A DNA stretch of 64,000 nucleotides from Puniceicoccales bacterium. GTDB taxonomy: Bacteria > Verrucomicrobiota > Verrucomicrobiia > Opitutales > LL51. Numbering within the stretch: the stretch's first letter is position 1; each line of letters starts with the position of its first letter. Below are positions 21,885 through 59,312 of the stretch, in pieces. The translations under genes and the position numbers were made by a program. Under the pieces are notes generated by a model. The model was not told where the DNA came from, did not search any database, and worked only from the letters and a program-made list of their open reading frames with translations. The DNA lies in NCBI GenBank assembly GCA_031257405.1, contig JAIROS010000002.1, positions 10,512 through 74,511 on the forward strand, in the 5' to 3' direction.

Positions 21885-22712
21885 CTAACGCCAAAAAAAT
21901 CCACCAGGAAAGAAATCACGTAGCCTCTCAAAATATGAAGCAGTATCTTCTTTATTACGCTCTTCGTTTGTTTTCCCTCCGTTCGCACGCAATAGAGCCA
22001 CTAAATCTTTCACTACTTCGTCCTTCAATCCCTTTTTATTCTGAAAAACCAAATCTATCGGGGTCTGGCCAGTATAAATGGGAGCCATTGAGGCTAAAAC
22101 TAGACCGGGAATATTATTAGTCCTAGTATTTACATCTGCGCCATTGTCCAGCAAAAATCGAACAACATTTTTGTGGCCATTCTCCGCGGCATAATGCAGA
22201 GGCGTTCGCCCTTGATTGTCCCTAGCATTCACTGGAATGTTGTTTCTAAGGACAAGGAATGTAACAATATCAAACTGGCCTCCCTCCGCGGCATAATGCA
22301 GCGCGGTCTTGCCCTGACCATCCTTAATTTTCTCATCTGCGCCATTGTCCAGCAAAAATCGAACAACCTTTTTGTGGCCATTCTCCGCGGCATAATGCAG
22401 CGCGGTCCTGCCCTCATTAAGACCACCTTTCGCCCCAGCATTCACATCTGCGCCATTGTCCAGCAAAAATTGAACAACATTTTTGTGGCCATTCTTCGCG
22501 GCATAATGCAGCGCAGTCTTGCCGTTGTTATCCCAATTTTTCACATTTTTGTCAGACATATTTCTCACGACACATTCGCAGTCGCCTTTTTTTGCGGCTT
22601 GAAAGAACCAGTCATCTCGAAACTCTTCACTCCCCAGAAGATAATTTGCACCTAAGAAGTAACTGCCCACTACCATATATTTAATCATACTTTTTTTATC
22701 TAACTTATTCAT
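21885..22712 (-). CDS. Ankyrin-repeat protein, paralogue 1 (leader type A: MNKLDKK...)
   Basis: 275-aa ORF with repeated 33-aa units (GKTALHYAAKNGHKNVVQFLLDNGADVNA...). It has an N-terminal Ser/Gly-rich hydrophobic leader and an AAAGGAAAA Shine-Dalgarno sequence upstream. Confidence 0.92.
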   Translation of the reverse strand: MNKLDKKSMIKYMVVGSYFLGANYLLGSEEFRDDWFFQAAKKGDCECVVRNMSDKNVKNWDNNGKTALHYAAKNGHKNVVQFLLDNGADVNAGAKGGLNEGRTALHYAAENGHKKVVRFLLDNGADEKIKDGQGKTALHYAAEGGQFDIVTFLVLRNNIPVNARDNQGRTPLHYAAENGHKNVVRFLLDNGADVNTRTNNIPGLVLASMAPIYTGQTPIDLVFQNKKGLKDEVVKDLVALLRANGGKTNEERNKEDTASYFERLRDFFPGGFFWR

Positions 22713-23036
22713 AATATTTTCCTTTCGGTAACCGAACTACCAAGCACATTAATTTCAATCTGTCAAGAACTTTTTTTTTATTTTTTTTGAAAAATTTAGC
22801 ACAGCCCGAAAATTCCCCGCTCCATTGGGCGAGTTGCGGTACAAAAATCAGAAAAATATTAAAAAACAAAATAAAAAACATCCCCAATCCAAAACGGCGG
22901 AGACTTCAAAACCGGAGCAGAGAATCTCTCCCCGCCCCGGATAAATTTTATTTAAATAAGTTTTATCTAATATTTAAATATATAAGTTTTACCTAATATT
23001 TAGGCGTTAATAAGCTCCGGCAGTACGTCTCTGTGC
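22713..23036 (-). repeat. Ankyrin-cassette copy 1 (between ank2 stop and ank1 start)
   Basis: Contains the hairpin (22912..22940), a CCATTGG box (22822..22828), a T-rich tract, and TTGACA (22761..22766) with TTGGTA (22738..22743). Confidence 0.85.
22738..22766 (-). promoter_or_regulatory. Putative promoter of ank1 (TTGACA-N17-TTGGTA)
   Basis: A perfect -35 hexamer preceded by an A-tract. The block TTGACAGATTGAAATTAATGTGCTTGGTA is identical upstream of ank4, and similarity stops right after TTGGTA. Confidence 0.5.
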
Positions 23037-23819
23037 CTAGGATTTAAAACCAGGCAGTTTCCGAAACCAGCTCCGCCAGCTCCTTTCTTGCAAGACTTCA
23101 GCGCCTGTTTTCGCTCCGCGTGCCAGCAATAGAGCCTTTATTTGTTCACGCCGGGCCCGATCCCGATTCTCACACTCCTCGACCAAATCTAGCGCGGTCT
23201 TGCCCTTATCCCGGCCACCAATCACCGTAACATTCACATTAATTCCAGGTGCAGTTAGCAACATTTCAACGATCTCTGTTTTGCCCCATCTTACGACATC
23301 ATGGAGCACGGTATAGCCATAGATATCCGCAGCATTCACATTAATGCCTCGTCTGCCTAGCAACAATCTAACGGTCTCTTTGTTCCTCTTGCGGAACTCT
23401 GTTACGGCCAAAGAAAGCGCGGTATAGCCACTATTGTCCTTAGCATTCACATCGGCGCCTGCGCCTAGCAATAAGTTAGCGTTATCTACGCGGCCATACA
23501 TTGCGGCCCAATGGAGCGGGGTCCTGTTCCATCTATCAGCCCTATCCCTAGCATTCACATCGGCGCCTGCGCCTAGCAACAATTTAACAACTTCTATATT
23601 ATCCCACTGTACGGCACAATGAAGCGCGGTCTCGCCGCCAATTTCACTCCTAGCATTCACATCAATGCCTCCGATTAACGCCGCCCGAACACCTGCTACA
23701 TCGCCCTTTGCTGCGGCTTGATGGAGCGGTGTCCATAGCCCCAGAAGACAATTTGTACTTAATAGGCAACTACTCGTTGCCACACATTGAACTATATTTT
23801 TTATATCTGCGTTTCGCAT
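23037..23819 (-). CDS. Ankyrin-repeat protein, paralogue 2 (leader type B: MRNADIKNIVQCVATS...)
   Basis: 260-aa ORF with ankyrin units (TPLHWAAMYGRVDNANLLLGAGADVNAKD...). Confidence 0.92.
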   Translation of the reverse strand: MRNADIKNIVQCVATSSCLLSTNCLLGLWTPLHQAAAKGDVAGVRAALIGGIDVNARSEIGGETALHCAVQWDNIEVVKLLLGAGADVNARDRADRWNRTPLHWAAMYGRVDNANLLLGAGADVNAKDNSGYTALSLAVTEFRKRNKETVRLLLGRRGINVNAADIYGYTVLHDVVRWGKTEIVEMLLTAPGINVNVTVIGGRDKGKTALDLVEECENRDRARREQIKALLLARGAKTGAEVLQERSWRSWFRKLPGFKS

Positions 23820-24134
23820 AACATATTGTACAATAATACATTTTTAACACTTGGCAAGAATTTTTTTATTTTTTTTTGAAAAATTTTAGCGTAACCTGAA
23901 AAATTTCCCCGTTCCATTGGGCGAGTTGCGGTACAAAAATCAGAAAAATATTAAAAAACAAAATAAAAAAAATATCCCCCATCCAAAACGGCGGAAACTT
24001 TAAAGCCGGAGCAGAAAAATTTTCCCACCCCGGACGAATTGTATCTAAATAAGTTTTACTTAATATTTAAACATATAAGTTTTACCTAAACTCAGGCATC
24101 AATCAACTCCTTTAATGAGCCTTCGCCGCCTCTA
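23820..24134 (-). repeat. Ankyrin-cassette copy 2 (between ank3 stop and ank2 start)
   Basis: Near-identical to copy 3 over about 250 bp. It carries the hairpin (24006..24033) and a CCATTGG box (23914..23920). Confidence 0.85.
23825..23857 (-). promoter_or_regulatory. Putative promoter of ank2 (TTGCCA ... TGTACAAT extended -10)
   Basis: The minus strand reads aaaaaaattcTTGCCAagtgttaaaaatgtattatTGTACAATatgttATG. The -10 lies only 5 nt from the ATG and no Shine-Dalgarno sequence is present. Confidence 0.4.
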
Positions 24135-24989
24135 TTATTCTTCTGAATCTAAATATGCTGCTGCTGCTTCTTCTGCTTCTTTTCGCTGCAGCCGCTTCTG
24201 CCTCCGCAAGCTCAGTATCCGTTTTTGCTCCGCGTGTCTATGCAATAGACCCACTACTTGGGTATGATCTCTCTCATAAGCCAAATCTAGCGCAGTTTTG
24301 CCTCTGTCATCCTTAGCATTCACATCGGCATCTTTCTTTAGCAACAATTCAACAACATCTACGTGACCCTTCGCCGCGGCCAAATGGAGCGCAGTCTCGC
24401 CTTTCTCGCCTTTAGCATTTACATTTGCGCCTGCGTTTATCAATAATTTGACGGGGACTTCGAGGCCCACTACTGCGGCGTTATGAAGCGCCGTCCAGCC
24501 CTTTTCCTCGCCATTACTCACCGTAGCATTCACATTAATGCCAGGTGCAGCTAGCAACAGTTTAACAGCCTTTTTTTGGCCCCAGTCTGCGGCAGTATGG
24601 AGAGGAGTGTAGCCATTTTCGTTCGTAACATTCACGTCCGCTCCTGCGTCTATTAACATTCCAACGACCCTTCCGTAGCTGTCAAATGCTGCGGCCAAAT
24701 TGAGCGCGGTATCGCCACCATCAGTCTTAGCATTCACATCAATGTCGGGCATATCTAGTAATATTTTAACGATCTTTGGGGATCTCGGTGTGACCAAATG
24801 GAGCGCTGTCCAGCCCTCTTCATTCTTAGCATTCACATCAATGCCTCCGATTAACGCCGCCCGAACACCTGCTAAATCGCCATTCGCTGCGGCTTTATGG
24901 AGCGCGGTAGTCCCCAGACAACTTACACTTAAGAAGCAACCACTCGTTGCCACACATTGAACTATATTTTTTATATCTGCGTTTCGCAT
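24135..24989 (-). CDS. Ankyrin-repeat protein, paralogue 3 (leader type B)
   Basis: 284-aa ORF. The first 16 residues are identical to ank2, followed by ankyrin units (GWTALHLV..., GETALHLAAAKGHVDVVELLLKKDADVNAKD). Confidence 0.92.
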   Translation of the reverse strand: MRNADIKNIVQCVATSGCFLSVSCLGTTALHKAAANGDLAGVRAALIGGIDVNAKNEEGWTALHLVTPRSPKIVKILLDMPDIDVNAKTDGGDTALNLAAAFDSYGRVVGMLIDAGADVNVTNENGYTPLHTAADWGQKKAVKLLLAAPGINVNATVSNGEEKGWTALHNAAVVGLEVPVKLLINAGANVNAKGEKGETALHLAAAKGHVDVVELLLKKDADVNAKDDRGKTALDLAYERDHTQVVGLLHRHAEQKRILSLRRQKRLQRKEAEEAAAAYLDSEE

Positions 24990-25338
24990 AACATATTGTA
25001 CAATAATACATTTTTAACACTTGGCAAGAATTTTTTTATTTTTTTTGAAAAATTTTAGCGTAACCTGAAAAATTTCCCCGTTCCATTGGATGAGTTGCGG
25101 TACAAAAAACAGAAAAAAACCTAAAAACAAAATAAAAAAAATATCCCCCATCCAAAACGGCGGAAACTTTAAAGCCGGAGCAGAAAAATTTTCCCACCCC
25201 GGACGAATTGTATCTAAATAAGCTTTACTTAATATTTAAACATATAAGTTTTACCTAAACTCAGGCATCAATCCGCTCCTTCAAGACGTCGCGCCTCTGC
25301 TTCAAGTTCTTCAGCTCTCGCCTGAAGCCCTTGTGCCT
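24990..25338 (-). repeat. Ankyrin-cassette copy 3 (between ank4 stop and ank3 start)
   Basis: Same module as copy 2, with the hairpin (25175..25202) and a CCATTGG box (25092..25098). Confidence 0.85.
24995..25027 (-). promoter_or_regulatory. Putative promoter of ank3 (same TTGCCA / TGTACAAT block as ank2)
   Basis: Sequence identical to the ank2 upstream block. Confidence 0.4.
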
Positions 25339-26736
25339 CTATTCTTCTTCTTCTTCAAGTTCAGCGCCTCTTTTCGCTCCACGTGCCAGCAATAGATCCC
25401 TTATTTGGGTATAATTTCCACGATTAGCAAAATCTAACGCAGTCTCGCCATATTCAACCTTAGCATTCACATCGGCATCTTTCTCTAGCAACAATTTAAC
25501 AACATCTACGTGGCCCTTCGTCGCGGCCACATGGAGCGGCGTATAGCCATTTTTATTCTTAGCATTCACATCTAGGCCGTCCGCAGCTAGCAACGCTTCT
25601 ACGGCCTTTACGTAGCCCTTCTGTAGGGCTAAATCTAACGCTGTCTTGCCATCTTCAGCCGTAGCATTCACATCGGCATCTTTCTCTAGCAACAATTGAA
25701 CAACATCTACGTAGCCCTTCTGTAGAGCTAAATCTAACGCAGTCTCGCCATATTTATTCTCAGCATCCACATCAATGCCGGGTGCAGTTAGCAACAATTT
25801 AACGAAATTCAAATTGTCATTCATTGCGGCATAATGGAGCGCCGTATAGCTTGTGTTATCCTTAGCATTCACATCTGCATTTTTTTTTAGTAACAATTGA
25901 ACAACCTCTACGTAGCCATTCAGTGCGGCCTTAATGAACGCTGTCTCGCCATATTTATCTTTAGCATTCACATCTGCATTTTTTTCTAGCAACGCTTTAA
26001 CAACATCTACGTGGCCCTTCGTCGCGGCCACATGGAGCGCCGTCTTGCCTAATTTATCCTTAGCATTCACCACAATGTTGGATACAGCTAGCAACGATTT
26101 AACAACATCTACGTGGCCATTCTCTGCGGCCAAATGGAGCGCGGTCTGGTCCAAGAAATTCACAACATTCACATTTGCGCCGAAATACATAAGAGATTTA
26201 GCAACAGCTACGTGGCCATTCTCTGCGGCATAATGGAGCGGCGTATAGCGGTAGCTATCCTTAATATCCACTGCTGCGCCTCTAATGGGGATAAAGTATC
26301 TAACAATATCCAAGTGGCCCATCTTTGCGGCCAAATGGAGCGCCGTTTTGCCTCCGTTATCCCTAGCATCCATATTTGCCTCTAATTTTAGCAACTTTTT
26401 TACGATATCGCAGTGACCATTTTCTGCGGCATAATGGAGTGCCGTCTTACTCTTACCCTTACCATCAGTCACCTTAGCATTCACATCTATGCCGTAATTC
26501 ATAAGAAATTCAACGACATTCAAACGGTTATTCGCTGCAGCCTCAATGAACGCGTTCTGGATTTTTTCGTTCTTACCATTTATCTCAATGAGGGATATTG
26601 CATTTTCAACGCCTTCTAAATCGCCATCTCTTGCGGCCTCAATGAGCGCGGTAGCCCCCTGAAGATAACTTGCACCTAAGAGGTAACTACTCACTACCAA
26701 ACCTTTAATTATATTTTTTTTATCTAACTTATTCAT
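25339..26736 (-). CDS. Ankyrin-repeat protein, paralogue 4 (leader type A)
   Basis: The ORF track gives 25339..26781. The ATG at 26736 (MNKLDKKNIIKGLVVSSYLLGASYLQG) matches the ank1 start and has the same Shine-Dalgarno sequence. It contains about 12 ankyrin units. Confidence 0.92.
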   Translation of the reverse strand: MNKLDKKNIIKGLVVSSYLLGASYLQGATALIEAARDGDLEGVENAISLIEINGKNEKIQNAFIEAAANNRLNVVEFLMNYGIDVNAKVTDGKGKSKTALHYAAENGHCDIVKKLLKLEANMDARDNGGKTALHLAAKMGHLDIVRYFIPIRGAAVDIKDSYRYTPLHYAAENGHVAVAKSLMYFGANVNVVNFLDQTALHLAAENGHVDVVKSLLAVSNIVVNAKDKLGKTALHVAATKGHVDVVKALLEKNADVNAKDKYGETAFIKAALNGYVEVVQLLLKKNADVNAKDNTSYTALHYAAMNDNLNFVKLLLTAPGIDVDAENKYGETALDLALQKGYVDVVQLLLEKDADVNATAEDGKTALDLALQKGYVKAVEALLAADGLDVNAKNKNGYTPLHVAATKGHVDVVKLLLEKDADVNAKVEYGETALDFANRGNYTQIRDLLLARGAKRGAELEEEEE

Positions 26737-27010
26737 AATATTTTCCTTTCGACGACGACATACCAAGCACATTAATTTCAATCTGTCAAGAACTTTTTTT
26801 TATTTTTTTGAAAAAAATTTAGCACAGCCTGAAAATTCCCCGCTCCATTGGGCGAGTTATAATACATAAAATCAGAAAAAATATTTAAAAATAGAATAAA
26901 AATATCACTCATTACATTAATTTCAATCTGTCAAGCTTTTTTTATATTTTTTTGAAGAAATTTTCCCGCTCCATTGGGTAAGTTGCGGTACAAAAAACAG
27001 AAAAAAACCT
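26737..27010 (-). repeat. Ankyrin-cassette copy 4, with two promoter modules in tandem
   Basis: TTGACA at 26784..26789 is the functional ank4 copy, and a second one lies at 26929..26934 with no ORF behind it. There are two CCATTGG boxes (26845..26851 and 26971..26977). Confidence 0.8.
26761..26789 (-). promoter_or_regulatory. Putative promoter of ank4 (TTGACA-N17-TTGGTA)
   Basis: Identical 29-nt block to the ank1 promoter. Confidence 0.5.
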
Positions 27011-46481: not shown

Positions 46482-47753
46482 ATGTTGGACTTAAAATTCA
46501 TCCGCGAACATAGCGACGAAGTGCGAGCCGGAATCGCTAAAAAAAAATTTAGCTGCGACCTCGACGCGTTTATCGCCGCCGATCACGAACGACGCGACCT
46601 CATCACCCATTCGGAATCCCTCCGCGCCCAACAAAATGCCGCTAGCAACGCCGTCAAAATCCTCGATAAAAAGTCGCCCGAATTCCAATCGAAAACCGCC
46701 GAACTGCGGATGCTCTCCGAAAATGTAAAAACGCTCGACGCCCAACTCGCAATAATCGAAGCAAAATGGAAGGCCCTCTACCTCGCCATCCCCAACGTCC
46801 CCCATAAATCCGTGCCCGCCGGTAAAAACGCGGACGATAACCAGACGGTGGCGACTTGGGGCGATATCGAAAAAATTTCCCCCTTCGCTACCCCCCACTA
46901 CGACATTCCATGGTTCGGCCAGCTGATCGATTTCCCGCGGGGCGTGAAAGTAACCGGTGCCGGATTCCCGTTTTACGTCGGCGACGGGGCCCGTGTGGTG
47001 CGCGCGCTGATCACATTTTTTCTGAACGAAGCCAAGGCCAACGGCTACACCGAATGCATGGCGCCCGCCCTGGTCAACGCCGCAAGCGCGACGGCTACCG
47101 GCCAGCTCCCCGATAAAGAGGGACAGATGTATCACGACGCGGCGGACGATTTTTACATGATTCCGACGGCGGAAGTCCCGGTGACCAATTTTTTCCGCGA
47201 CGAAATTTTCGAAGCATCGAAATTGCCCATCTACCGCTGCGGGTACACGCCTTGTTTTCGCCGCGAGGCGGGGAGTTGGGGGAAGGACGTCCGCGGGCTG
47301 AATCGCCTCCACCAATTTGACAAAGTGGAGCTGGTCAAGTGGACCCACCCCGACGAGAGTTTCGAAGAGCTCGAAAAATTGAGGCGCGATGCGGAAAAAT
47401 TGCTCCAAAAACTGCGTCTCCCCTACCGCGTCTTGTCCATTTGCACCGGCGACATCGGTTTCCCGCACAGCAAGCAGTACGATTTGGAGGTTTGGTCTGG
47501 GGGGCAGAAGCGTTGGCTTGAGGTTTCCAGTTGCAGCAATTTTACTGATTTTCAGGCGCGGCGCGCGGGCATTAAGTTCCGTGAAAAATCCGGAAAATCG
47601 GCATTTGTACACACGCTCAACGGATCGGGGCTAGCGGTACCGCGGGTTTTGGCGGCGATTTTGGAAAACAATCTCCAGGCGGACGGAACGGTACTTTTGC
47701 CAGAAATTTTACAAGATTTTGTTGGAACGGAGAAAATAGGGCTTGCGAAATAA
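46482..47753 (+). CDS. serS: Seryl-tRNA synthetase
   Basis: 423-aa ORF (MLDLKFIRE...; class II motifs FRRE.GS.GKD.RGL.R.HQF.KVE and TLNGSGLAV.R). Confidence 0.96.
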   Translation: MLDLKFIREHSDEVRAGIAKKKFSCDLDAFIAADHERRDLITHSESLRAQQNAASNAVKILDKKSPEFQSKTAELRMLSENVKTLDAQLAIIEAKWKALYLAIPNVPHKSVPAGKNADDNQTVATWGDIEKISPFATPHYDIPWFGQLIDFPRGVKVTGAGFPFYVGDGARVVRALITFFLNEAKANGYTECMAPALVNAASATATGQLPDKEGQMYHDAADDFYMIPTAEVPVTNFFRDEIFEASKLPIYRCGYTPCFRREAGSWGKDVRGLNRLHQFDKVELVKWTHPDESFEELEKLRRDAEKLLQKLRLPYRVLSICTGDIGFPHSKQYDLEVWSGGQKRWLEVSSCSNFTDFQARRAGIKFREKSGKSAFVHTLNGSGLAVPRVLAAILENNLQADGTVLLPEILQDFVGTEKIGLAK

Positions 47754-47879
47754 TTTTCTCGCGCACGGTGACTTTAGATTTTTCGCCCCTGATTATTCGC
47801 GCGGCAGAGGCGGGGAATATGTGTATTTTAGCGGTATTTTGTCGCTTGAAAAATTTTTCGTTAGCCCCATAGTTGTTTT

Positions 47880-49225
47880 GTGGATCTCAGAGGTCACCTC
47901 CAGCAAACCCAGACTCAGCGGCTATCGCCGGCGATGCTGCGGGCGCTGAATATTTTACAATTACCCGCCGTCGAACTTTACCAACTCGCCGCCGAAGAAA
48001 TCCGACGCAATCCGCTCCTCGACATCACGGCTGCCGACGCTTTTTCCCCCATTTTTTCCGCAAGCGGGAACGCGGAAGATATTGATATAGGCGCGCGCGC
48101 GATATAGTTGACGATGAAAAAAGCAAGCAAAATTTTTTAGAAAATATTGCGGCGGAACGTTCTCCGGAGGATTATCTTTTAGCGCAGGTGCCCGATCTGG
48201 ACGAAACCACGAAATCGGCATTGGCAACGCTGATTAGCAACCTCGATGGGCGCGGATTTTTGTCGGAGGATGTGGCGCAACAATTCGGAATCTCTCCCGC
48301 AAACGGCGAAGAGAATCGCGATTCGGCTTCCAAAAATTTGCCGGAAAATGTTTTTCAAAAAGCTTACAAAATTTTACGATCGCTTTCGCCGAAGGGCATC
48401 GGCGCTCGAGATTTACAGGACTGTTTTTTGCTGCAAATCCCACAAAATACGCCGCTTTACGAGCTCATCGCGCAGCATTTCGACGACCTGGAATATCGCC
48501 GTTTTGTTAAATTACGACGAAAACTTGGTAAAACGCAAACCGAATTACGTGCGCTGCTGGCGCCCCTAAAGTCACTCAACTTCGCCCCGCTCAAGACGAT
48601 TACGCCGCACACCAATCCGACAATAATTCCGGAAATTATTTTCAAAAAAACCGATCGCCGGTGGAGTTTCGAGCTTCGTGGCCCACCGGAAATGAGGATG
48701 AGCGACCTTTACAAAACGCTGCTTATCCGCCCGCTGAAGGGCGAAGAGCGTGATTTTTTTACAAAAAATAAACAAAATGTTCAATTTTAGATTCAATCGC
48801 TGCATCAACGTCGGGAAACTTTACAAAAAATTGCCCAATATATTTTGAAATTTCAGAGTGATTTTTTGGAAAATGGCCACGCTTCACTGCGCCCGCATCA
48901 TCAAAAACAAGCCGCCGCGCTCCTGCACGTACACCCCTCCACACTCTCGAGGGCGATCCAAAATAAATATGCTCAGACGCCGCACGGAACGGTTCCGCTG
49001 CAATTTTTCTTCTCCCACGGCAATCACGGCTCACTCATCGCACAAAACGCCCTCCGCGAAAACATCAAAAATATGATCAAAAACGAAAACAAAATTTCGC
49101 CACTCAGCGACGGAAAAATCGCACAAATCCTCCAAAATGAAGACATTTGGATCGCACGACGCACCATAACTAAATACCGCACACTCCTCAGTATCCCTTC
49201 AGCAAATGTCCGGCGATATATGTAA
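47880..49225 (+). pseudogene. rpoN: RNA polymerase sigma-54 factor, disrupted by one frameshift and one in-frame TAG
   Basis: Three collinear pieces are present. Region I is QRLSPAMLRALNILQLPAVELYQLAAEEIRRNPLL (frame 0, stop at 48105..48107). The core-binding part is GIGARDLQDCFLLQI (frame 2, open from 48086, TAG at 48788..48790). The C-terminal part holds the HTH and RpoN box, HPSTLSRAIQNKY..TP.G...LQFFFS and ARRTITKYR (same frame, to 49225). Confidence 0.85.
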
Positions 49226-49254
49226 AATTTTTCACAAAAAAAATAATTTTATAA

Positions 49255-49335
49255 TTTTAAATTAAAATCCAAACGCGTTACTCGCCCCTCCCTATGTTTT
49301 CTAGCGTGGCACAAATTTTTTCCATTGTCAACTAT
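49255..49335 (-). repeat. Solitary copy of the element repeated at 28160..28545
   Basis: By-eye alignment: aattaaaatccaaacgcgttactcgcccctccc...ccattgtcaac here against aattagaattccaaacgcggcattctccccaccc...ccaattgtcaag in the array, roughly two-thirds identical. It includes a minus-strand AAAAATAG-TTGACA. Confidence 0.6.
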
Positions 49336-49418
49336 TTTTTATATTTAAAAATTTTTTCGACATTTGCGCGGCATTTCCAATATGAATTTCAGGTTTCGGA
49401 TTTTTTGAATCACCGACA

Positions 49419-50750
49419 ATGGAAACGACTATTTTCCGACAGCTCCCCGACGCATTTTTTCACGGCGACTTCCCGGTCGAAATCAGCGGTTTTTGGAACG
49501 ACACGCGGACGCTTCGGCCTGGCGGCTGCTTCCTTGCGCTCACCGCGCGGCGCGACGGCCACGAATTCCTCGCCGATGCACAACGAAATGGCGCCCATTG
49601 CGCAATCGTCAGCCGCATCAACAAAAATTTAACCCTGCCCCAATTCCGCGTCGCCGATGTCCTCGAAGCCGCCAAAACTATTGTAAAAATTTATCGAAAA
49701 AATTATATAATCATTTCCGTGTCCGGTAGCTACGGAAAAACATCCACGAAAGATATGTTGCGGCTACTGTTTGGCGAAAATGCCTACGCGACGGAAGAAA
49801 ATCTCAATAACGAACTCGGCGTCATACTCTCGTTAAGCCGCATAAAATATGAACAATTCGGCATTATCGAAGGCGGAATCGATCACCCTGGCGAAATGGA
49901 TCGCCTCATCGACCTCGTCCGCCCCAATATCTCCGTCACGACCGGAATCGCCTCCGTACACCTCTCAAATTTTGAAAATTTTAATCAATTAATTTGTGAG
50001 AAAGTAAAAATTTTACAAGACGCCCTCGCGCGCAACGGCCACGGCATTGTCCCCGAACATTGCCTGACCCACGCCGCTTTCCGACAATTCGCCGACCGCT
50101 GCACCATCGTCGGCCGCAGCAATCGCCTCGCCCAATACCCGCATTTCACCCAATTCCGACTCGCCAAAAATAATACGATCATTTTGCGCGGGAAATATTT
50201 CCAAAACACCGCTTTTTTACTGCCAGAAATGAGTCTCGGGCAGGCGGAAAACTTCGCCAAAGCAGCCACCGTAGCGAAACTCGCGGGCATCGACGACACC
50301 GTCATTCAAAAAAAAATTTTACAATGGAAGCCGGGGAAAATGCGCGGCGAAACGATTTTTTTCAGGGGCCACGCCGTTTACCTGGACGCCTACAACGCAA
50401 ATCCGGTCGCGATGGACGACGCCCTGCGCCACTTCGACAAAAAATATTCCGGTGAAAAAACTTATATCCTCGGCGGCATGCGGGAACTCGGCCCATTCTC
50501 CGAAAATAGCCACGAAATATTAGCAAAATATTTTTTTAGAAAAAAAAATGCGACGATTTTCGCCATCGGAAAAGAAATGAATACCTTCTTCGAACGGCTG
50601 CGGCGAGCGAATCCCGCAGTAAAAATTTTCTACTTCGAAGACACCGAAACAGCTAAAAAACCTTTATTAAAAGCCATTCGCGGGACAATTTTCGCCAAAG
50701 GTAGCCACGCGTACCACCTGGAAAAAATATTCAGCGACGGCCCCGCTTAA
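49419..50750 (+). CDS. murF: UDP-N-acetylmuramoyl-tripeptide--D-alanyl-D-alanine ligase
   Basis: 443-aa ORF with the Mur-ligase P-loop (ISVSGSYGKTSTKDML), NLNNELGV, and DAYNANP. Confidence 0.9.
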   Translation: METTIFRQLPDAFFHGDFPVEISGFWNDTRTLRPGGCFLALTARRDGHEFLADAQRNGAHCAIVSRINKNLTLPQFRVADVLEAAKTIVKIYRKNYIIISVSGSYGKTSTKDMLRLLFGENAYATEENLNNELGVILSLSRIKYEQFGIIEGGIDHPGEMDRLIDLVRPNISVTTGIASVHLSNFENFNQLICEKVKILQDALARNGHGIVPEHCLTHAAFRQFADRCTIVGRSNRLAQYPHFTQFRLAKNNTIILRGKYFQNTAFLLPEMSLGQAENFAKAATVAKLAGIDDTVIQKKILQWKPGKMRGETIFFRGHAVYLDAYNANPVAMDDALRHFDKKYSGEKTYILGGMRELGPFSENSHEILAKYFFRKKNATIFAIGKEMNTFFERLRRANPAVKIFYFEDTETAKKPLLKAIRGTIFAKGSHAYHLEKIFSDGPA

Positions 50751-50795
50751 GATTTATTTTCCAAATTGCAACATAAAAAAAATATAATAAATATA

Positions 50796-50824
50796 TTGAC
50801 ACTTTTCTAAAAATCTACACCCTC
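50796..50824 (+). promoter_or_regulatory. Putative promoter of the autotransporter gene (-35 TTGACA)
   Basis: Reads aataaatataTTGACActtttctaaaaatctacaccc. The -10 is unclear. A Shine-Dalgarno AAAGGAAAAAGG precedes the ATG at 50869. Confidence 0.3.
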
Positions 50825-50868
50825 AGGCGAGAAGGTATATTAGATACTTTTAATAAAGGAAAAAGGTT

Positions 50869-53800
50869 ATGAAGGAAAAAAATAGGAAGATGGGGCCGCT
50901 AGCGAATCGCTACGGCTTATTAACGGTATTAGGTTTAGGTTGTTCATTTTTGGTGGGGGCTGCTCACGGGACGGAGACCGCCGTGACGGAAAACACGCGC
51001 TACGTAGCGGGAAAAAATGCGGGCAATGTTTTCAAGTTTGGTACGGATGGCGCTCTACCGGCGGCGGCGACGGACGCGTCGATTTTTACTAACGGCAACG
51101 AAGATCGGCTCACACTCAAAGGTGCGGCCAATGCTGGGGCGTTAGCGCAGGTGATATTTGACACTGCTGGTGAAACTGCTGTTGGTGGTACTTTTCAGCC
51201 GGAGGTGAAGAACGCCGATTTAGCGGCGGTAAAGACTTCGCTCCTCGATAATGGTGATTTGAATGAGATTTTCGCGCATAATGGCGCCCCCGCTGATCAT
51301 GCTTTAGCGACGCTCCTCAACAGAATCGCCGTCATCCAAGCCGTTAATGTACTGGATGCAGCCTTTGCTGCACTTCCAGCAGATGTCAACCCCGTAGCAA
51401 ACCAACTTAATGGCGTTGTCGGTGCCACTAACGCGAATGGTGGAGGTGTTACGAATACTGAATTTAAAGCAGCGATTGCACTAATCAAAACCAATGCAAG
51501 TGCCTTTGGCGATGTAACAGCGCTTACAAACAAACTCACTGCCATTGATGGGGCTGGTGGTACAGCTCTCTTCGGTACCACACCATTAAATGGCACTCAG
51601 GCCAAGGCCGAGGCCATTGCGAAGGATATAAATGCCATTCTTGCAGCCACTAACGCTAATCATGGCTTAAAGGAGGAATTTGACGCGATCACAAATGCCG
51701 CCACTACTCAGGCAACGGCCGCAACAACTTTCGCCGGAAATCTAAACACCGGCATGACCACCGGCGCCGGCGAATGGAATACCGCAAACTCCGGAAAAGG
51801 AGAATTGATCGATGGCGGTGTTAATGCTGCTACTACTGCTGTCGTCAGCGGTAATCTCGGTGCGGCCGGAATTTTTGAAGCAATACAAACACAACATGAC
51901 CAATTTATAACATGGTTAAATATTCCCGCCAACGTCGCGGAGGCTGACCTGATAGCCGCCGTACAAGCAGTCTTTGCCCCTGGTGGTGGTGCGCCGGCAG
52001 ACAGAGCAACCGCATTAGCAGTAGTAACATCAAACCTTAACACTGCACTAAATGCCGCCAAAACTGCCGCATACGGCGCCTTGAAAGGCCTATTCGACGT
52101 CGCCCCAGCCCCAGCAGCCGGTGCCGCCGCTACCCCGCGTACCTTCACTTACCAAATTAGCCAAAGTGATTTGAAGAATGACCTGAATTTAACTAGTAGT
52201 ACCACGAGTAAAAATTTCGCCGTCATTGATCCAGCGACTATGAACGCAAATGAAACCGTGATGTTCATCTTTGATACTACAACACGCGAAGCAAAATCTG
52301 TCAACGTCGGTAATATTTTTTACAAAAAACTCGATAAAGATCTCAATTTGCACCTGGTGCATACCTTGATGGATCAGAATGGGACCATAGAGACCGTCGG
52401 ATTTAATGAAATTAAAGATCCCTTCGATCCAAACGCAACCCTAAACCACTTGACCCTGCAGCTTTCGACCGCTGCTCAAGAGCGTTCCGGCAATAATCCT
52501 GATTTTATTTTCGATAAAGAAATATTTGTCAAAAAATTGATCTTGGGTATTCCGAACACTCAGGAGATAGATATCGCAATCAAGAGTGATGTGCAGGATA
52601 AATTGATCAATAATTATAAAATCGGCCCCGGAGGTGTGGATGTAAAATTTGAGGAAAATTTAACTGTCGCGAATGATATTGAAGTTTTACAAAATAGTGA
52701 ACTAAAATTCGTGGATACTAAAACGCTATACCTCGGTGGGAACCTCAAGCTCCGAGATGGCAGCGCCACACTCCATTTAGGTACGGGCTCCGCCAGAGAA
52801 ACGGTCAATATCGCACCTCTCGCAGCACAAGCAGGAAATATTGTATTCGAGAATAGAGATGTGCTCATGCTCACCAGTAATGTTACGCTTAATGTTACAA
52901 ATCCGGGCAGAGGCACCGACTACTACTTCAAAGGCATTACTGGCGCTCCTAATGCTGCATTTACGGTTGCAGCTCCTGATGATCATGCGATAACCCTAAA
53001 ACTTGATGCTATTGATGCTGGCGCTATGCATGTCAATGGAGTTGCCGTTGGTGGCGCTAATGATATCGCCATGATAACCGTTGGGGATGGAGGTACCTTA
53101 GAACTCGAAAATATCACCATAAAAACAACAGATGACGAAAAAAATCCTATTATCGCGAAATTCGGAAGCAATGGTACGTTGGAACTCGACAATGTTACTC
53201 TCGGTGGGACTGGAATAGACATAACGGCACTCAAAGCCGGTGAGAATTTTACAATTGGCCTCAACGGTGCAACAAACTTATACGGTAATATCAATGCTGG
53301 GAAAGGTGCAACGTTGGCCGTAGATCTAGGTAATCCGGGCACTTTAAAATGGCCCGAAGGAAGTTTAGCACTCCCCGCCAATGAAAAACTCAAGATTGAA
53401 ATTGGTGATAGTAGCGATGCGATTCTTGAAAAAGGTTTGTCTGCATTAAAAACAGCTGTAGCTAACAGCAAGTTAAACATCATTGATCTATCTGGTAATG
53501 CGGCTAATGCGGCGGCTATAGGGGCTCTCGTTTCCCTCGACCTCGTTTCGTCACCCCTACTCAAAGGCGCAGCGCTAAAATTCGATGCCACAACCGGCCT
53601 TTTTACATTGGAAGTCCCAGCCAACGCAGTCCCGAGTAATCTCGCCGAATACCTCGCAAACAGCGGTAGTTTCGATCGCGCCTACATCTCCGACGACCTA
53701 TTCAGCATAGTGGATAAGGCGGTCCAAAGCGGTGCCAAAACAAACATCGAAGCCTTATTGGTCCAGGGAATATTTAATCCAAATTATTCCAATGCACAAA

Positions 53801-54861
53801 AATCTAAGATCCTATCCGCTCTATCCAAAACTACGACCGAAGAGAAAAATCGCGCCACATTAACATTGATCGATACCGCACGCGAAACGATCTACGGAAA
53901 AATGGGACAAGATCCCGACCCCGGTAAACATTATAGCGTTTGGGTATCTGGTTTCGGCGACGTCGCGCGGAATGGTTCTTCCGGTAGCTATAAGATGAAA
54001 TGCAACACCTACGGCTTCACTCTGGGCGTCGATACCCACATCAATGATGACTTCCTTTTGGGTGCCGTGTTCGGCTACGGTAAAGCGAAAGCCAAAAACA
54101 GAGGCGATATGGCGCTTAGCAGCGACGGCCGGTTCGATCTCAAGTCCTATTTCGGCGGCATTTACGGTATGTGGGATGAACTTGTTCCGGACCTTTCCCT
54201 CAAATTCTCCGTCCTCGCCGGCCACGGGAAATACGAAGAAAAACAATATTTTGACTTTGGAATAGCAAAAGGTACTATTCTCGATAGCAGCCACGACGGC
54301 AACTGGTTGAGCGGCAATGTGGATTTCACCTACAAGCACTGGAGTGTTATGGGCTTCAACGTCGGCCCTTGGGTATCCCTTTCGGCGACAACGATCCACC
54401 AAAAAAGCGGCGATGTGGGTTCCGCAACCACTACTAAAACGGATCGTATGGTCAATAGCACCGCTACACACTACAAGCGCGAGGTAGCTGCTGCCGATCG
54501 GCGCGCCATTGAAGCCATATTTGGTGTCGCGATGGATTACGAATTCGCAGCGGGTATTTTCGAGCTCGCTCTTGGTTACAAGCACGACTGGCGCAAGTTA
54601 AAAGGCGGTAAAGTATCCATTTGGGAGGCGTTCAGCGACGGCAATTACAAAGGATTGACGGCCGCATCGGGTAGCAATCACATTTCCGAGTTTTTCAAAT
54701 TCGGCGCATCGAACATGGAAACGGGCAAGCATGCGTTTGTTGGGCGAGCTGCTTGGAACATGCAATTTGGAAATTTTGGATTGACTCTCGGTGGTCACGG
54801 CCAAGCGGGGAGCCATTTTAAGGACATTTCCGGTTTCATAACCGCTTCTTATTCATTTTAA
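50869..54861 (+). CDS. Autotransporter outer-membrane protein (type Va) with a long Ala/Thr/Asn-rich passenger
   Basis: 1330-aa ORF with a signal peptide (LLTVLGLGCSFLVGAAHG). The last 280 aa or so show the alternating beta-barrel pattern (HYSVWVSGFGD...YGFTLGVD...GAVFGYG) and end in the aromatic SYSF. Confidence 0.88.
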   Translation: MKEKNRKMGPLANRYGLLTVLGLGCSFLVGAAHGTETAVTENTRYVAGKNAGNVFKFGTDGALPAAATDASIFTNGNEDRLTLKGAANAGALAQVIFDTAGETAVGGTFQPEVKNADLAAVKTSLLDNGDLNEIFAHNGAPADHALATLLNRIAVIQAVNVLDAAFAALPADVNPVANQLNGVVGATNANGGGVTNTEFKAAIALIKTNASAFGDVTALTNKLTAIDGAGGTALFGTTPLNGTQAKAEAIAKDINAILAATNANHGLKEEFDAITNAATTQATAATTFAGNLNTGMTTGAGEWNTANSGKGELIDGGVNAATTAVVSGNLGAAGIFEAIQTQHDQFITWLNIPANVAEADLIAAVQAVFAPGGGAPADRATALAVVTSNLNTALNAAKTAAYGALKGLFDVAPAPAAGAAATPRTFTYQISQSDLKNDLNLTSSTTSKNFAVIDPATMNANETVMFIFDTTTREAKSVNVGNIFYKKLDKDLNLHLVHTLMDQNGTIETVGFNEIKDPFDPNATLNHLTLQLSTAAQERSGNNPDFIFDKEIFVKKLILGIPNTQEIDIAIKSDVQDKLINNYKIGPGGVDVKFEENLTVANDIEVLQNSELKFVDTKTLYLGGNLKLRDGSATLHLGTGSARETVNIAPLAAQAGNIVFENRDVLMLTSNVTLNVTNPGRGTDYYFKGITGAPNAAFTVAAPDDHAITLKLDAIDAGAMHVNGVAVGGANDIAMITVGDGGTLELENITIKTTDDEKNPIIAKFGSNGTLELDNVTLGGTGIDITALKAGENFTIGLNGATNLYGNINAGKGATLAVDLGNPGTLKWPEGSLALPANEKLKIEIGDSSDAILEKGLSALKTAVANSKLNIIDLSGNAANAAAIGALVSLDLVSSPLLKGAALKFDATTGLFTLEVPANAVPSNLAEYLANSGSFDRAYISDDLFSIVDKAVQSGAKTNIEALLVQGIFNPNYSNAQKSKILSALSKTTTEEKNRATLTLIDTARETIYGKMGQDPDPGKHYSVWVSGFGDVARNGSSGSYKMKCNTYGFTLGVDTHINDDFLLGAVFGYGKAKAKNRGDMALSSDGRFDLKSYFGGIYGMWDELVPDLSLKFSVLAGHGKYEEKQYFDFGIAKGTILDSSHDGNWLSGNVDFTYKHWSVMGFNVGPWVSLSATTIHQKSGDVGSATTTKTDRMVNSTATHYKREVAAADRRAIEAIFGVAMDYEFAAGIFELALGYKHDWRKLKGGKVSIWEAFSDGNYKGLTAASGSNHISEFFKFGASNMETGKHAFVGRAAWNMQFGNFGLTLGGHGQAGSHFKDISGFITASYSF

Positions 54862-54879
54862 CGCTTTCGGTTGCACAGG

Positions 54880-54907
54880 GGGGCGGACAATTCCGCTCCT
54901 TTTTTTT
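54880..54907 (+). terminator. Rho-independent terminator after the autotransporter gene
   Basis: GGGGCGGA-caat-TCCGCTCC (8-bp stem including one G-U pair) followed by T8, 19 nt after the stop. Confidence 0.8.
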
Positions 54908-54944
54908 ATCTGGTTTTTTGGCATTATTTTGTTTCGATTGCTGC

Positions 54945-55325
54945 ATGGGCGGCATTATTTCGGTTGGCCACGACATGGTCGAAATTGAACGCGTGGAGCG
55001 TGCTATCAAGCGGTATGGCGAAAAATTTTTACAAAAAATATACACGCCGGCTGAGTTGCGCTATGCATTTGGGAGGGGGGATGCCGTGTCGTCTTTAGCG
55101 GCTCGATTTGCGGCCAAGGAGGCCATTTCGAAGGCATTTTTATGTGGCATCGGGCGGCAATTTCGCTGGCAAAGTGCGTCCATTATTCACCGAGATAGTG
55201 GGGCTCCGGAGGTTATTCTCGATGTTTTAGGGGCGGCGCGTTTGGAGAAACTAAGCGGCCGGCGGGTCATTATTTCTCTGACGCATACCCGCTCCATAGC
55301 TTCGGCGGTCGCCCTCGTTACCTGA
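54945..55325 (+). CDS. acpS: Holo-[acyl-carrier-protein] synthase
   Basis: The ORF track gives 54918..55325. The ATG at 54945 gives MGGIISVGHDMVEIERV..., the AcpS N-terminus. Also present: AARFAAKEA..KA and SLTH. Confidence 0.9.
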   Translation: MGGIISVGHDMVEIERVERAIKRYGEKFLQKIYTPAELRYAFGRGDAVSSLAARFAAKEAISKAFLCGIGRQFRWQSASIIHRDSGAPEVILDVLGAARLEKLSGRRVIISLTHTRSIASAVALVT

Positions 55326-55346
55326 TTAAATAACTGAGTACCGAAA

Positions 55347-55416
55347 ATTATTTTCAATATTCTAGGGGCACGGAGGAACTAAGCGGCTGGCGGGTTATTA
55401 TTTCTCTGACGCACAT
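55347..55416 (+). repeat. Partial duplicate of the acpS 3' end
   Basis: 55347..55416 (aattattttcaatattctaggggcacggaggaactaagcggctggcgggttattatttctctgacgca) matches 55211..55287 inside acpS with one short deletion. Confidence 0.8.
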
Positions 55417-55451
55417 TGCCCATAAAGTAAAAAAAATTAAAATTTAAACAC

Positions 55452-56450
55452 TTACAAAACAACAATATCTTCATCGACCGGCTCAGCGGCATGTAACGGA
55501 TGCGCGAACCCGTGCATTTCCTCCAGCGACTCCCCGCCGCCTGCCGCAATGTCGCCAACCTCTACCGGAATCTCAAGCGGCCTAAAACCCTTCGCACCCA
55601 CAAAAAGTACGCCCCTCCCCGACTCTCCACTCCCCCGAATATTCACGCTTACCGTGCGCTCACCAGGTAAAAAACGGACCTCCGGCATAATAATACTGTC
55701 GGGGATGTCGGTCGTGACGTCGAGCTCAATGCCGTCCGCCGGCGCCGCCTGGTCAATCATAAATACTAACCGCTGACTCTCCCCATTACCCAAACGAATA
55801 AAATCACTGCTGCATTGCAAATTCGAACGGTCAATGAAAAATGTCCCCGCAAAAAATTCCCTGCGGTTCGATAGCAAATAAACCTCGTACTCCCGATCGC
55901 ACTCCATGGGCGGTACCCTAAAGGCAATGGCGCCCGCCGATAGCCAATCGGACGGAATCGTCCGCCCCCCCATGCGCACCTTGTCTGCCCGCCCTAAACC
56001 GCAGCCAACGATATTCACCGGCGCCCCCACAGGCCCGCGATTCGCATCAAGCGCAAAAATATATTTGCTGGTAACCGCCGTACGGTAGAGCTCGGATTTC
56101 GCAATTCTTTCACGAATGGTGCCGTGGCGATTGATCTCGTAAATCAGCTCGAAATAATAGGGGATGGTGCCCAGGTCGTAAAATGGGTAGTCGTAGACAA
56201 AAATATTATTGCCATCGGGATGTTTTTGCATCTCATGTTTTTGGCCGTTGATAACGACGTAGGGTTTAATACTTTTTTGTAAAATGTCGCCGTCGGAATT
56301 GCGTACGCCCATGGTAATGGTGTACATGTGGGACTGATTTTGCGGCATAACATTGGGCGTCATATTGCAAATATCTTCCTCCATACACCCCCCTAAACCT
56401 ATCGCCGCCGCGAGCAAAAAAATTTTACTTGGCCCAGACAATAATTTCAT
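55452..56450 (-). CDS. Lipoprotein of unknown function with an IPT/TIG-like segment
   Basis: The ORF track gives 55452..56606. The ATG at 56450 gives MKLLSGPSKIFLLAAAIGLGGC (lipobox LGGC). The middle part, VNIVGCGLGRADKVRMGGRTIP....AIAFRVPP, resembles an IPT domain. Confidence 0.6.
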   Translation of the reverse strand: MKLLSGPSKIFLLAAAIGLGGCMEEDICNMTPNVMPQNQSHMYTITMGVRNSDGDILQKSIKPYVVINGQKHEMQKHPDGNNIFVYDYPFYDLGTIPYYFELIYEINRHGTIRERIAKSELYRTAVTSKYIFALDANRGPVGAPVNIVGCGLGRADKVRMGGRTIPSDWLSAGAIAFRVPPMECDREYEVYLLSNRREFFAGTFFIDRSNLQCSSDFIRLGNGESQRLVFMIDQAAPADGIELDVTTDIPDSIIMPEVRFLPGERTVSVNIRGSGESGRGVLFVGAKGFRPLEIPVEVGDIAAGGGESLEEMHGFAHPLHAAEPVDEDIVVL

Positions 56451-56474: not shown

Positions 56475-57596
56475 ATGCATTTGCAAGAACAAGTTTACGT
56501 GCCGTTGGGATTGTACGTCCACGTCCCGTTTTGCGGCGTTCCGTGCAGCTACTGCGCCTTTTACAAGGAGCGTTTGACGCCGGCCGCCCTCGAACGCTAT
56601 ACCCACTGCCTGTGTGACGAAATCCGGTCTATCGACGACGATCGCGCCTTTGATACGATTTATTTTGGCGGTGGGAATCCGGGGGTTTTAGGTCCCGAGC
56701 AGATCGGGCGAATCGCGGCCAATATCCACCAAAAACTCAGGCAATCCCCCCGCGAATGGACCGTCGAAAGTTCACCCAATATGGTCAGCGAAAGTAAGTT
56801 ACGGGCCTGGCAATCCGCCGGCGTCAATCGCCTATCGCTGGGCGTCCAAAGTTTCGACGAACGGACATTGCGCGCGCTCGGTAGGAAACAAAATCCCCGC
56901 CAAACCTTCCACGCCTACGAACTTATCCGCCAAATGGGTTACCGGAATGTGGGGCTTGATCTGATTTTTTCCGCGCCGGAACAGACCGCTACGCAACTCA
57001 TCGCAGACCTGACTACCGCCATTTCCCTCGCCCCAGAACACATTTCGACCTATTGCCTGACCTACGAAGAGGGGACGCCGCTGAGTCAGAAAGTGGGTAA
57101 TGGGGCCGAGGAGGGCCGTGATAGCGATTTTTACGAAATGGTGTGCGATTTTTTGGGCAATCGGGGATACGAACAGTACGAGATTTCCAATTTTTGCCAA
57201 CGCGGCTACGCCTCCATCCACAACAAAAATACGTGGCGCATGGCGGATTGGATCGGCCTTGGACCGTCGGCGAGCAGCCAATATCGCGGCAGACGTTACT
57301 CCCAAATGGCTTCCGTGGGACGTTGGGCGGCGGGCATCGAAAATCGCCATCCCGAGTGGCGCGACATTGTAAATTTGGATGAAAAAATTTTAGCAATCGA
57401 TAAAATTATTTTCGGCCTACGGATGAACGAGGGCGTCGATATTTCCCGTAACCCGTGCGGCGACCGGCTGGAATTTTTTTTCCGAGACCTGCAAAGTGAA
57501 GCGCTACTGATCCGCGAAGGGCCGATTATCCGCCTAACCCGCCAAGGCCGCCTCCTCTGCGACGCTATCACCCAAGAAATTTTCAATTTTTTTTAA
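56475..57596 (+). CDS. hemW: Radical-SAM heme chaperone HemW (HemN-like, oxygen-independent coproporphyrinogen oxidase family)
   Basis: 373-aa ORF with the radical-SAM motif (YVHVPFCGVPCSYCAF) and GGGNPG. Its length fits HemW rather than HemN. Confidence 0.85.
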   Translation: MHLQEQVYVPLGLYVHVPFCGVPCSYCAFYKERLTPAALERYTHCLCDEIRSIDDDRAFDTIYFGGGNPGVLGPEQIGRIAANIHQKLRQSPREWTVESSPNMVSESKLRAWQSAGVNRLSLGVQSFDERTLRALGRKQNPRQTFHAYELIRQMGYRNVGLDLIFSAPEQTATQLIADLTTAISLAPEHISTYCLTYEEGTPLSQKVGNGAEEGRDSDFYEMVCDFLGNRGYEQYEISNFCQRGYASIHNKNTWRMADWIGLGPSASSQYRGRRYSQMASVGRWAAGIENRHPEWRDIVNLDEKILAIDKIIFGLRMNEGVDISRNPCGDRLEFFFRDLQSEALLIREGPIIRLTRQGRLLCDAITQEIFNFF

Positions 57597-57797
57597 AAAC
57601 TTGCCATTATTATTATATTTTTTATGAATATTTTCTTTCCGAGACCTGCAAAGTGAAGCGCTACTGGTCCGCGAAGGGCCGATTATCCGCCTAACCCGCC
57701 AAGGCCGCCTCCTCTGCAACGCCATCACCCAAGAAATTTTTAATATTTTTTAAAAAAACTTGCCATTGTTTTTATATTTTTTATAATAATTAAACCT
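57478..57797 (+). repeat. 157-bp tandem duplication covering the hemW 3' end, the intergenic promoter, and the first codons of the next gene
   Basis: The anchor gagacctgcaaagtgaagcgctact occurs at 57484 and 57641. The two copies differ at only a few positions. Each copy contains cTTGCCAtt...tatattttttat(g)aata. Confidence 0.9.
57760..57787 (+). promoter_or_regulatory. Putative promoter of the 504-aa orphan gene (TTGCCA-N16-TATAAT)
   Basis: A perfect -10 TATAAT lies at 57782..57787. The ATG at 57798 is 10 nt downstream and no Shine-Dalgarno sequence is present. Confidence 0.5.
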
Positions 57798-59312
57798 ATG
57801 AATAATATCTTAAAAAGTCAAATGGCGTGCCTATGCATAATAGGGAGTAGCAGCGTATTATTGGGCGAAGGTGAACCTTATTTTGCCCAGGAAAGAAAGC
57901 AACTTCCCAAAAACACAAACGCGGTGGGCGGGCAACCCCCAACCATGCAGAAACCCATCCAACGAAACGTCAATACTAACCAAGGTCCACACCTCAAAAC
58001 CCCACCTAATCCGGTAAACAAAAATTTGGGAAAAACAGCCGCCACACATGATAGAAAGCCCGTAGACGACGGCGTACGTTATTTTGACCAGGAAAGAAAG
58101 CAATTGTGGGAAGCTTTAAAGGCGATACGCGATAAAGTCGTAAACACGAAACAACCTACCCAACAAACCATTAATATCGGCCCAAGAACATACAAGGTCA
58201 TATGTACCATAGGCGGAGATAGGGTAACAATACTTGTTATGCTCCTTGAAAATCCAGACACCCCAGTGCAGCGGTTGATCAAAATCATCGAAGGCCAAAA
58301 TTCAACCCAAATTCAATTGGTGAGCAAAAATACGTCACAGACCATTAATGGCCCCAAAAACATATGGAGTAGGTGGGAAAATCGTAAAATTATCGACCAA
58401 GTGCTCGATAATTTTTACAAAGACACACGCAAAGACTTTGAACACTGCTTCGCAATAATGGGGAATCCAAGCGCTCCTTCCAAGCAAAAACAGAACGCAA
58501 TGAGGAAATTGAACTTGTTTTACCTATCACCTAATCTTTCAAAGTCAGATAAAGAAAGGATCGAAAAATTTGTTCGGGATCTCAATTGGAAAGTAAATAT
58601 TTTTGCACATGCCACATATTTTAAAATGAATCCAAAAGAAATCGCAAAATTGGAAAAAAATCTTTATCCGAATAAGTGCCCTGCTATAAGAAATACATTC
58701 CAATTCGATCCACAATCTATGACACGCTTCCCTGTAGCCGAAGGACTCACATATTTTAAATATAAAACACTCAACGATGAACCAGATGTTCTGCTTTTGA
58801 CGAAAGAATTTTTCTCAAAAGAGCGACAGAAACAAGTAACGGATTCCAACGGTCTGGTATTAAGTTTAAACGAACTAAAGGGAATGTGCGATGCCGAGCT
58901 TTTTAAATTACAGAAAAACAAAGATCTATCGCCTCAGGAAAAAGAAAAACGGCTGACAGCACTGTCAAAAGAAGTGCAGGAATATTTGCAGTATCTAGAG
59001 GGTTCCGGAGTTGAAAAATTAGTTGATATATATAATAAATTCAATACGGAACCAGTTTTTACCAAACGACCATTCTTTGGTAAGTTCTTTGGTAAGAATA
59101 CAATAGACTCAGCATCAATAGCAGCTGCACAAGCGGGATCAAGGATTAAATTATTTACAACAGATTTTCAAAAATTAGAAACAAAAATAAAAATTGAATT
59201 GGAAAAACTTCGGGCAAACACCTCGGGTTCAGGCGTAGATCGCAGCGGCGGGGCTATTTCGCCCGCTACCCCCCAAGCGACGCAACAGTTGTACACCATC
59301 CGGAGCGTTTAA
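57798..59312 (+). CDS. Orphan secreted protein (504 aa), unknown function
   Basis: The N-terminal leader MNNILKSQMACLCIIGSSSVLLGEG resembles the ankyrin leaders. The motif YF(A/D)QERKQL occurs twice. The protein is Lys/Asn/Gln-rich and I recognise no domain. Confidence 0.7.
   Translation: MNNILKSQMACLCIIGSSSVLLGEGEPYFAQERKQLPKNTNAVGGQPPTMQKPIQRNVNTNQGPHLKTPPNPVNKNLGKTAATHDRKPVDDGVRYFDQERKQLWEALKAIRDKVVNTKQPTQQTINIGPRTYKVICTIGGDRVTILVMLLENPDTPVQRLIKIIEGQNSTQIQLVSKNTSQTINGPKNIWSRWENRKIIDQVLDNFYKDTRKDFEHCFAIMGNPSAPSKQKQNAMRKLNLFYLSPNLSKSDKERIEKFVRDLNWKVNIFAHATYFKMNPKEIAKLEKNLYPNKCPAIRNTFQFDPQSMTRFPVAEGLTYFKYKTLNDEPDVLLLTKEFFSKERQKQVTDSNGLVLSLNELKGMCDAELFKLQKNKDLSPQEKEKRLTALSKEVQEYLQYLEGSGVEKLVDIYNKFNTEPVFTKRPFFGKFFGKNTIDSASIAAAQAGSRIKLFTTDFQKLETKIKIELEKLRANTSGSGVDRSGGAISPATPQATQQLYTIRSV

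Follow-up and report, generated by a model that had tools for sequence, protein, structure and literature searches.

Two independent lesions in rpoN of a probably host-associated member of the Puniceicoccales: a probable young pseudogene

The stretch of DNA analysed here (64 kb, called the window) carries a gene for sigma-54, rpoN, with a reading frame that is broken at two places. We conclude, with a probability of about 0.8, that this is a genuine and evolutionarily young pseudogene in a host-associated member of the Puniceicoccales (Verrucomicrobiota) of the termite-gut type. The first lesion is a frameshift at an alternating GC run, and the second is an in-frame TAG codon 680 nt 3′ of it. 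Either lesion alone would prevent synthesis of full-length sigma-54, while the presence of both indicates that rpoN is no longer maintained by selection. An earlier, sequence-only reading of this DNA had noticed the frameshift and offered a fixed inactivating indel as the first of three explanations. That explanation is supported by our analysis, and it is strengthened by the independent nonsense codon downstream.

The pseudogene as a whole (47880..49225, + strand) runs from a GTG start to a TAA stop (49223..49225), and would encode 447 amino acids when repaired. It is divided into three fragments on the + strand. The first (47880..48107) is in frame 0, and contains region I (the activator-interacting domain, AID) together with the start of the linker. 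From the GTG at 47880 the translation reads VDLRGHLQQTQTQRLSPAMLRALNILQLP...GNAEDIDIGARAI, and then terminates at TAG (48105..48107). In frame 2 there is a TGA at 48083..48085, from which point (48086) the frame is open and reads RRARDIVDDEKSKQNFLEN.... Both frames had been described in this way from the letters alone, and the translations agree. The second fragment (48101..48787, frame 2) comprises the remaining linker and the core-binding domain (CBD). The third (48791..49225, also frame 2) is the DNA-binding domain (DBD) with its HTH and RpoN box, and is closed by the terminal TAA. Pfam finds Sigma54_AID (PF00309) in the first fragment (E = 7.9e-11, 42.1 bits compared with a cutoff of 23.8), Sigma54_CBD (PF04963) in the second (E = 2.5e-31) and Sigma54_DBD (PF04552) in the third (E = 3e-45), and all three domains in the repaired protein. 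Residues 74-442 of RpoN from one relative (L003) map by tblastn to 48101..49222 in a single frame. The RpoN box within the third fragment, ARRTITKYR (49154..49180, +), aligns with ARRTVAKYR of the relatives. The three domains, the RpoN box and 85% identity to an intact orthologue are those of a member of the sigma-54 (RpoN) family. The window gene differs from the family in that its reading frame is broken twice, so that no full-length product is possible. A single uninterrupted ORF spanning all the rpoN domains is absent, the breaks being the frameshift at 48091..48101 and the TAG at 48788.

We note a variation in the RpoN box of L001, the closest intact relative. This is AQRTVAKYR, with CAG as the codon for the first Arg position (~3350 in L001, corresponding to 49157..49159 in the window). 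Of 15 aligned sequences, 12 have Arg in this column, the exceptions being L001 (Gln), P0004, and P0018 (Ser). The P0004 sequence (i.e. that of L002) is unreliable in this column because it is frameshifted there.

Searching with the repaired RpoN sequence returned a tight group of sigma-54 proteins from Puniceicoccales MAGs or JGI metagenomes. The best match is P0001 (85% identity, intact), with P0004 at 79% and P0002 (intact) at 71%; outside the Puniceicoccales group the identity drops to ~33%. The DNA of six relatives was compared with the window, i.e. L001, L002 (the same as L016, MAG Gx481_bin202), L003 (GCA_031274165.1), L020, L021 and L022. The gene order rmuC-serS-rpoN-murF-autotransporter-acpS is conserved among the relatives, and rpoN is intact at the syntenic position between serS and murF in L001, L003, L020, L021 and L022. 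The sequence to the left of the tract gave 0 exact matches in the contigs of GTDB species representatives. Metagenome contigs with related loci contained only distant sigma-54 genes (26-47% identity) that are useless for comparison of the tract, while the related loci among genome contigs were limited to one deltaproteobacterial gene and the L002 contig, recovered a second time as L016.

The GC run at the frameshift is (GC)5G (48091..48101, +), i.e. 11 nt or 5.5 units. It falls within the 19-nt interval where the rpoN frame must switch, and the junction is G-GCGCGCGCGC-G, which is where the sequence-only reading had placed it. It is longer than any other run of dinucleotides in the window. In dinucleotide-preserving shuffles of the window (GC)5 is expected 0.53 times per shuffle, with at least one occurring in 33 of 100 shuffles. 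By itself the tract is within chance, and its significance comes only from its coincidence with the indel in the alignments to relatives.

Comparison of the tract with that of related genomes had been proposed as a check. In all six relatives the corresponding DNA is alternating GC, encodes an Ala-Arg-rich linker and is in frame. The tract is A(CG)6AG in L001, encoding D-A-R-A-R, and (GC)7 in L021. In the remaining four of the six it is interrupted, being CGCGCACGCGCG in L002, GCGCGCGTGCGCGCG in L003, CGCGCGCGCACGTGCGCG in L020 and CGCACGCGCATGCGCGC in L022. These sequences point to an ancestral tract of (Ala-Arg)n linker DNA, variable in length and purity and always in frame. In the DNA alignment there are 11 nt between ATAG and ATA in the window, compared with 15 nt in both L001 and L002. 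The tract is not one GC unit too long; it is 4 nt short of the length in either relative. The alignment thus points to a loss of 4 nt in the lineage of the window (CGAG or GCGA, formally, from the 3′ end of the run) and not to the gain of a GC unit. Removal of one GC unit does give ...DIGARDIVDDEK..., as had been claimed. Loss of one more unit would put the frame back and leave the linker two residues short of that in L001, and this is probably tolerable because linker lengths vary among the aligned relatives. The accompanying claim, that one continuous ORF would result, does not stand, the in-frame TAG at 48788..48790 (+) having been overlooked.

This second stop codon is in the same frame as the second fragment. 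Its context is ...FTKNKQNVQF*IQSLHQRRETLQKIAQYILKF..., also given as ...KQNVQF*IQSLHQRRETL.... At 48788..48790 the DNA of all six relatives has a sense codon, i.e. TGG (Trp) in L001, L002, L003 and L020, and TTG or TTA (Leu) in L021 and L022 respectively. In the protein alignment, which includes 13 relatives of the Puniceicoccales clade, the position is W or L in all of these but P0018 (N). One G-to-A transition is enough to turn TGG into TAG, and the sequence here is non-repetitive. When the tract alone was repaired in silico the translation still met this TAG, so repair of the tract by itself cannot restore rpoN.

The comparisons suggest a course of events, given here in the order in which we would place them. 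The ancestral rpoN would have contained a short stretch of alternating GC coding for the Ala-Arg linker that joins region I to the core-binding domain. A deletion of 4 nt of the replication-slippage type at the 3′ end of this stretch would then have shifted the frame, leading to termination at the TAG at 48105. We infer slippage at an ancestral imperfect repeat as the most economical mechanism for the 4-nt loss. Independently, a G-to-A change would have converted the Trp codon TGG at 48788, where the DNA-binding domain begins, to TAG.

The substitution data bear on when this took place. The pairwise dN/dS between the window and L001 is 0.19 for rpoN, 0.20 for murF and 0.09 for serS. Branch-specific counts of non-synonymous and synonymous changes were obtained by parsimony, and those in rpoN were compared with serS and murF combined by a Fisher test. 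On the window branch the counts are 19/24 for rpoN and 30/51 for serS plus murF (p = 0.45), so there is no significant relaxation. The ratio is raised on the L002 branch, with 51/43 in rpoN compared with 26/72 in serS plus murF (p = 1e-4). The window rpoN would seem to have been under purifying selection until recently, and the counts are compatible with a very recent loss. A ratio on the window branch like that of the neighbouring genes means that little neutral time has elapsed, as expected if the loss was recent. As a rough estimate from general mutation spectra, a neutral gene of 1.35 kb would receive a further disabling mutation after roughly 0.005 substitutions per site. The presence of two lesions is compatible with recent loss.

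In L002 (and L016) rpoN is broken at a different place. One nucleotide has been lost from a T-run inside the DNA-binding domain (~5640..5740 in L002, aligning to ~49003 in the window), splitting the gene into 403 + 50 amino acids. From the alignments and the branch counts this looks like an independent and older decay of rpoN, and repeated loss of the gene is probable within this host-associated clade. Given the parallel decay in L002, genuine loss in the window is biologically plausible.

The sequence-only reading had also raised an assembly or sequencing error, in which case the real rpoN would be intact, and both the 4-nt shortfall and the TAG would be errors of the consensus. We consider this unlikely. 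Runs of alternating GC can be error-prone in some chemistries, and the source assembly is probably derived from a metagenome or a single cell, the closest relatives being MAGs. Moreover, the substitution pattern of the window branch is indistinguishable from that of the intact neighbours, as would fit a functional gene with two errors. However, two unrelated types of error (a 4-nt deletion and a G-to-A change) would be required in one gene of 1.35 kb with none in 15 neighbours, and the TGG-to-TAG site lies outside any repeat. When 16 genes of L003 were compared with the window by tblastn, only RpoN was split between frames. Of the other 15 syntenic genes 13 align end to end in one frame, and a hypothetical protein gives a weak match in two same-frame pieces inside an open ORF of 535 amino acids. 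We estimate a probability of ~0.005 that two random consensus errors over ~18.6 kb of coding sequence would both fall in rpoN. The independent decay of rpoN in a relative, by making loss plausible, also argues against error.

A second assembly reproduces both lesions. The Logan contig SRR14710907_7203 is 100% identical to 47399..55750 of the window (8,352 bp) without gaps. It was made by another assembler from raw reads, and may share its read set with the window assembly. The identity rules out an artefact of the assembler, though not a systematic artefact in the reads at the GC run. The exact MurF and autotransporter proteins of the window both lead to this contig; exact look-up of the window SerS and RmuC gave no match. 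In a collection of 5.8 billion proteins none is 90% or more identical to the repaired RpoN (the best being 85%), so an intact allele is absent from this public collection.

Two further alternatives make the GC run itself the important element. In one, the (Ala-Arg)n-coding tract, conserved in position throughout the clade, is a mutational hotspot that repeatedly toggles or knocks out sigma-54 in Puniceicoccales symbionts of termite guts, and the window rpoN was phase-varied to OFF and subsequently locked by the nonsense mutation. We think this very unlikely. If it were true, the gene of a global sigma factor would here contain a tract akin to a contingency locus while on its way to being lost.

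In the other, which was the third option of the sequence-only reading, the run acts as a contingency tract, such that slipped-strand phase variation would turn sigma-54 ON and OFF in the population, and the OFF state was assembled. The break in the frame coincides exactly with a dinucleotide run in which a change of length shifts the frame, and the homologous runs differ between L001 and L021 ((CG)6 compared with (GC)7), so the length mutates over evolutionary time. There are known precedents for such switching. In C. jejuni slipped-strand switching affects flgR and flgS, which are activators of the sigma-54 regulon, and (AG)4-5 tracts in the H. pylori methyltransferase hpyAVIBM, i.e. dinucleotide runs of 4-5 units, are phase-variable (PMC3930126). 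The likeness is that a short repeat (homopolymers in flgR and flgS, (AG)n in hpyAVIBM) lies in coding sequence such that a change of length shifts the frame, and for flgR and flgS that the affected gene is part of the sigma-54 regulatory system. By contrast, the affected gene here is the sigma factor itself; the same paper reports phase variation in activators and not in rpoN (PMC3930126), and our literature search found none for rpoN and no paper of any kind on this genome. Moreover, the change in the window is irreversible. A change in tract length cannot rescue the protein past the second, non-repeat lesion at 48788. The run is short and not over-represented, its purity is not conserved among the relatives, and the 4-nt difference from the ancestral length includes non-repeat bases (CGAG), so is not a clean change of units. 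The Logan contig is unbroken through the tract, and no allele of rpoN with an intact frame was found at 90% identity or above in the protein collection. Phase variation of the window gene is therefore highly improbable.

It is scarcely credible that rpoN is still expressed by programmed −1 frameshifting with read-through of the TAG, or as a split sigma-54 made of separate working fragments: the three domains are well preserved with the RpoN box and HTH intact, and there are candidate internal starts at GTG 48188 and TTG 48845, but the relatives encode one polypeptide and sigma-54 requires its core-binding and DNA-binding domains on a single chain. No in-phase slippery heptamer of the form X XXY YYZ is present from 48086 to 48104. 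A single heptamer occurs, TTTTTTC at 48052, but it precedes the frame-2 TGA at 48083 and does not have the right phase. Programmed −1 frameshifting was therefore rejected, there being no in-phase heptamer in the overlap of the frames. Reassignment or suppression of TAG was also rejected, since this codon is a common terminator in the window (it ends 14 of 41 non-overlapping ORFs with 150 or more amino acids) and no suppressor tRNA with a CUA anticodon is found among the five tRNAs of the 64 kb.

If the pseudogene is genuine, sigma-54 would have become dispensable in the lifestyle of this organism. Ankyrin-repeat genes are a hallmark of eukaryote-associated bacteria. Four such genes, encoding 275, 260, 284 and 480 amino acids, lie in tandem in the window (21885..26781, − strand), and proteins with such eukaryote-like repeats suggest that the bacterium lives inside cells or in association with eukaryotes. 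Note that the genes are spaced by unusually long gaps of ~315-350 bp. The verrucomicrobia of termite guts include the 'Nucleococcus cluster', endosymbionts of protists with reduced genomes of ~1 Mb (PMC8204192).

The window was also searched for other parts of the sigma-54 system. No gene for an enhancer-binding protein was found in the 64 kb using Pfam on 20 ORFs, tblastn with an approximate NtrC central domain, and the GAFTGA motif. Searching the window for −24/−12 promoters (TGGCAC-N5-TTGCW with up to two mismatches) gave 22 sites where 26.5 were expected, which is no excess over chance and is uninformative. As the window covers 64 kb only, the missing activators and promoters say little about the whole genome.

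The coding density of the window is ~90%, and only one gene is visibly broken in the 64 kb. Here a small indel in a simple repeat and a nonsense codon disable a dispensable global regulator among intact housekeeping neighbours, much as regulatory genes become pseudogenes in bacteria that are endosymbionts or have recently been restricted to a host. The parallel loss in the sister lineage L002, the ankyrin repeats and the relatives from termite guts are further points of likeness to pseudogenes of reductive evolution. The differences are that host association is here deduced from the sequence, and that the genome is not in advanced decay.

In practice, the organism should be annotated as lacking a functional sigma-54, and the functions of sigma-54 deduced by homology should be taken as off. 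This applies to the 64 kb seen, and a second rpoN is possible elsewhere. The gene has apparently been lost independently in at least two lineages of a clade of Verrucomicrobia that are probably associated with protists or termites, the loss in the window being caught very early, while in L002 selection is already relaxed. This agrees with the way in which alternative sigma factors are usually shed under host restriction, and reveals no new regulatory mechanism. The window gene adds a new case to a familiar class of events, and contributes modestly to the record of regulator loss in this symbiont clade.

Some other features of this region were observed. The autotransporter gene of the window (50869..54861, +) is an open ORF of 1330 amino acids, of which the L003 orthologue matches only the C-terminal two-thirds, with 38% identity. 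The protein is a fast-evolving surface protein, and the genes that flank it are 54-88% identical to those of L003. Directly downstream of an intact HemN-like gene (56475..57596) there is a duplicate of a HemN-like radical-SAM C-terminus (57637..57747, +), which is 37 amino acids in length and 73% identical to residues 334-370 of the L003 protein. It is followed by an ORF of 504 amino acids (57798..59312, +) that has no Pfam match, and L003 lacks this ORF between HemN and RsmD. The region may have arisen by an insertion that duplicated the end of its target. In the window rmuC and serS are 4 nt apart and have no short ORFs between them. Such ORFs are present between these genes in L003 (8448..8612) and L021 (8123..8278), with that of L003 giving a faint match to Seryl_tRNA_N, and they may be remnants of a duplicated 5′ end of serS.
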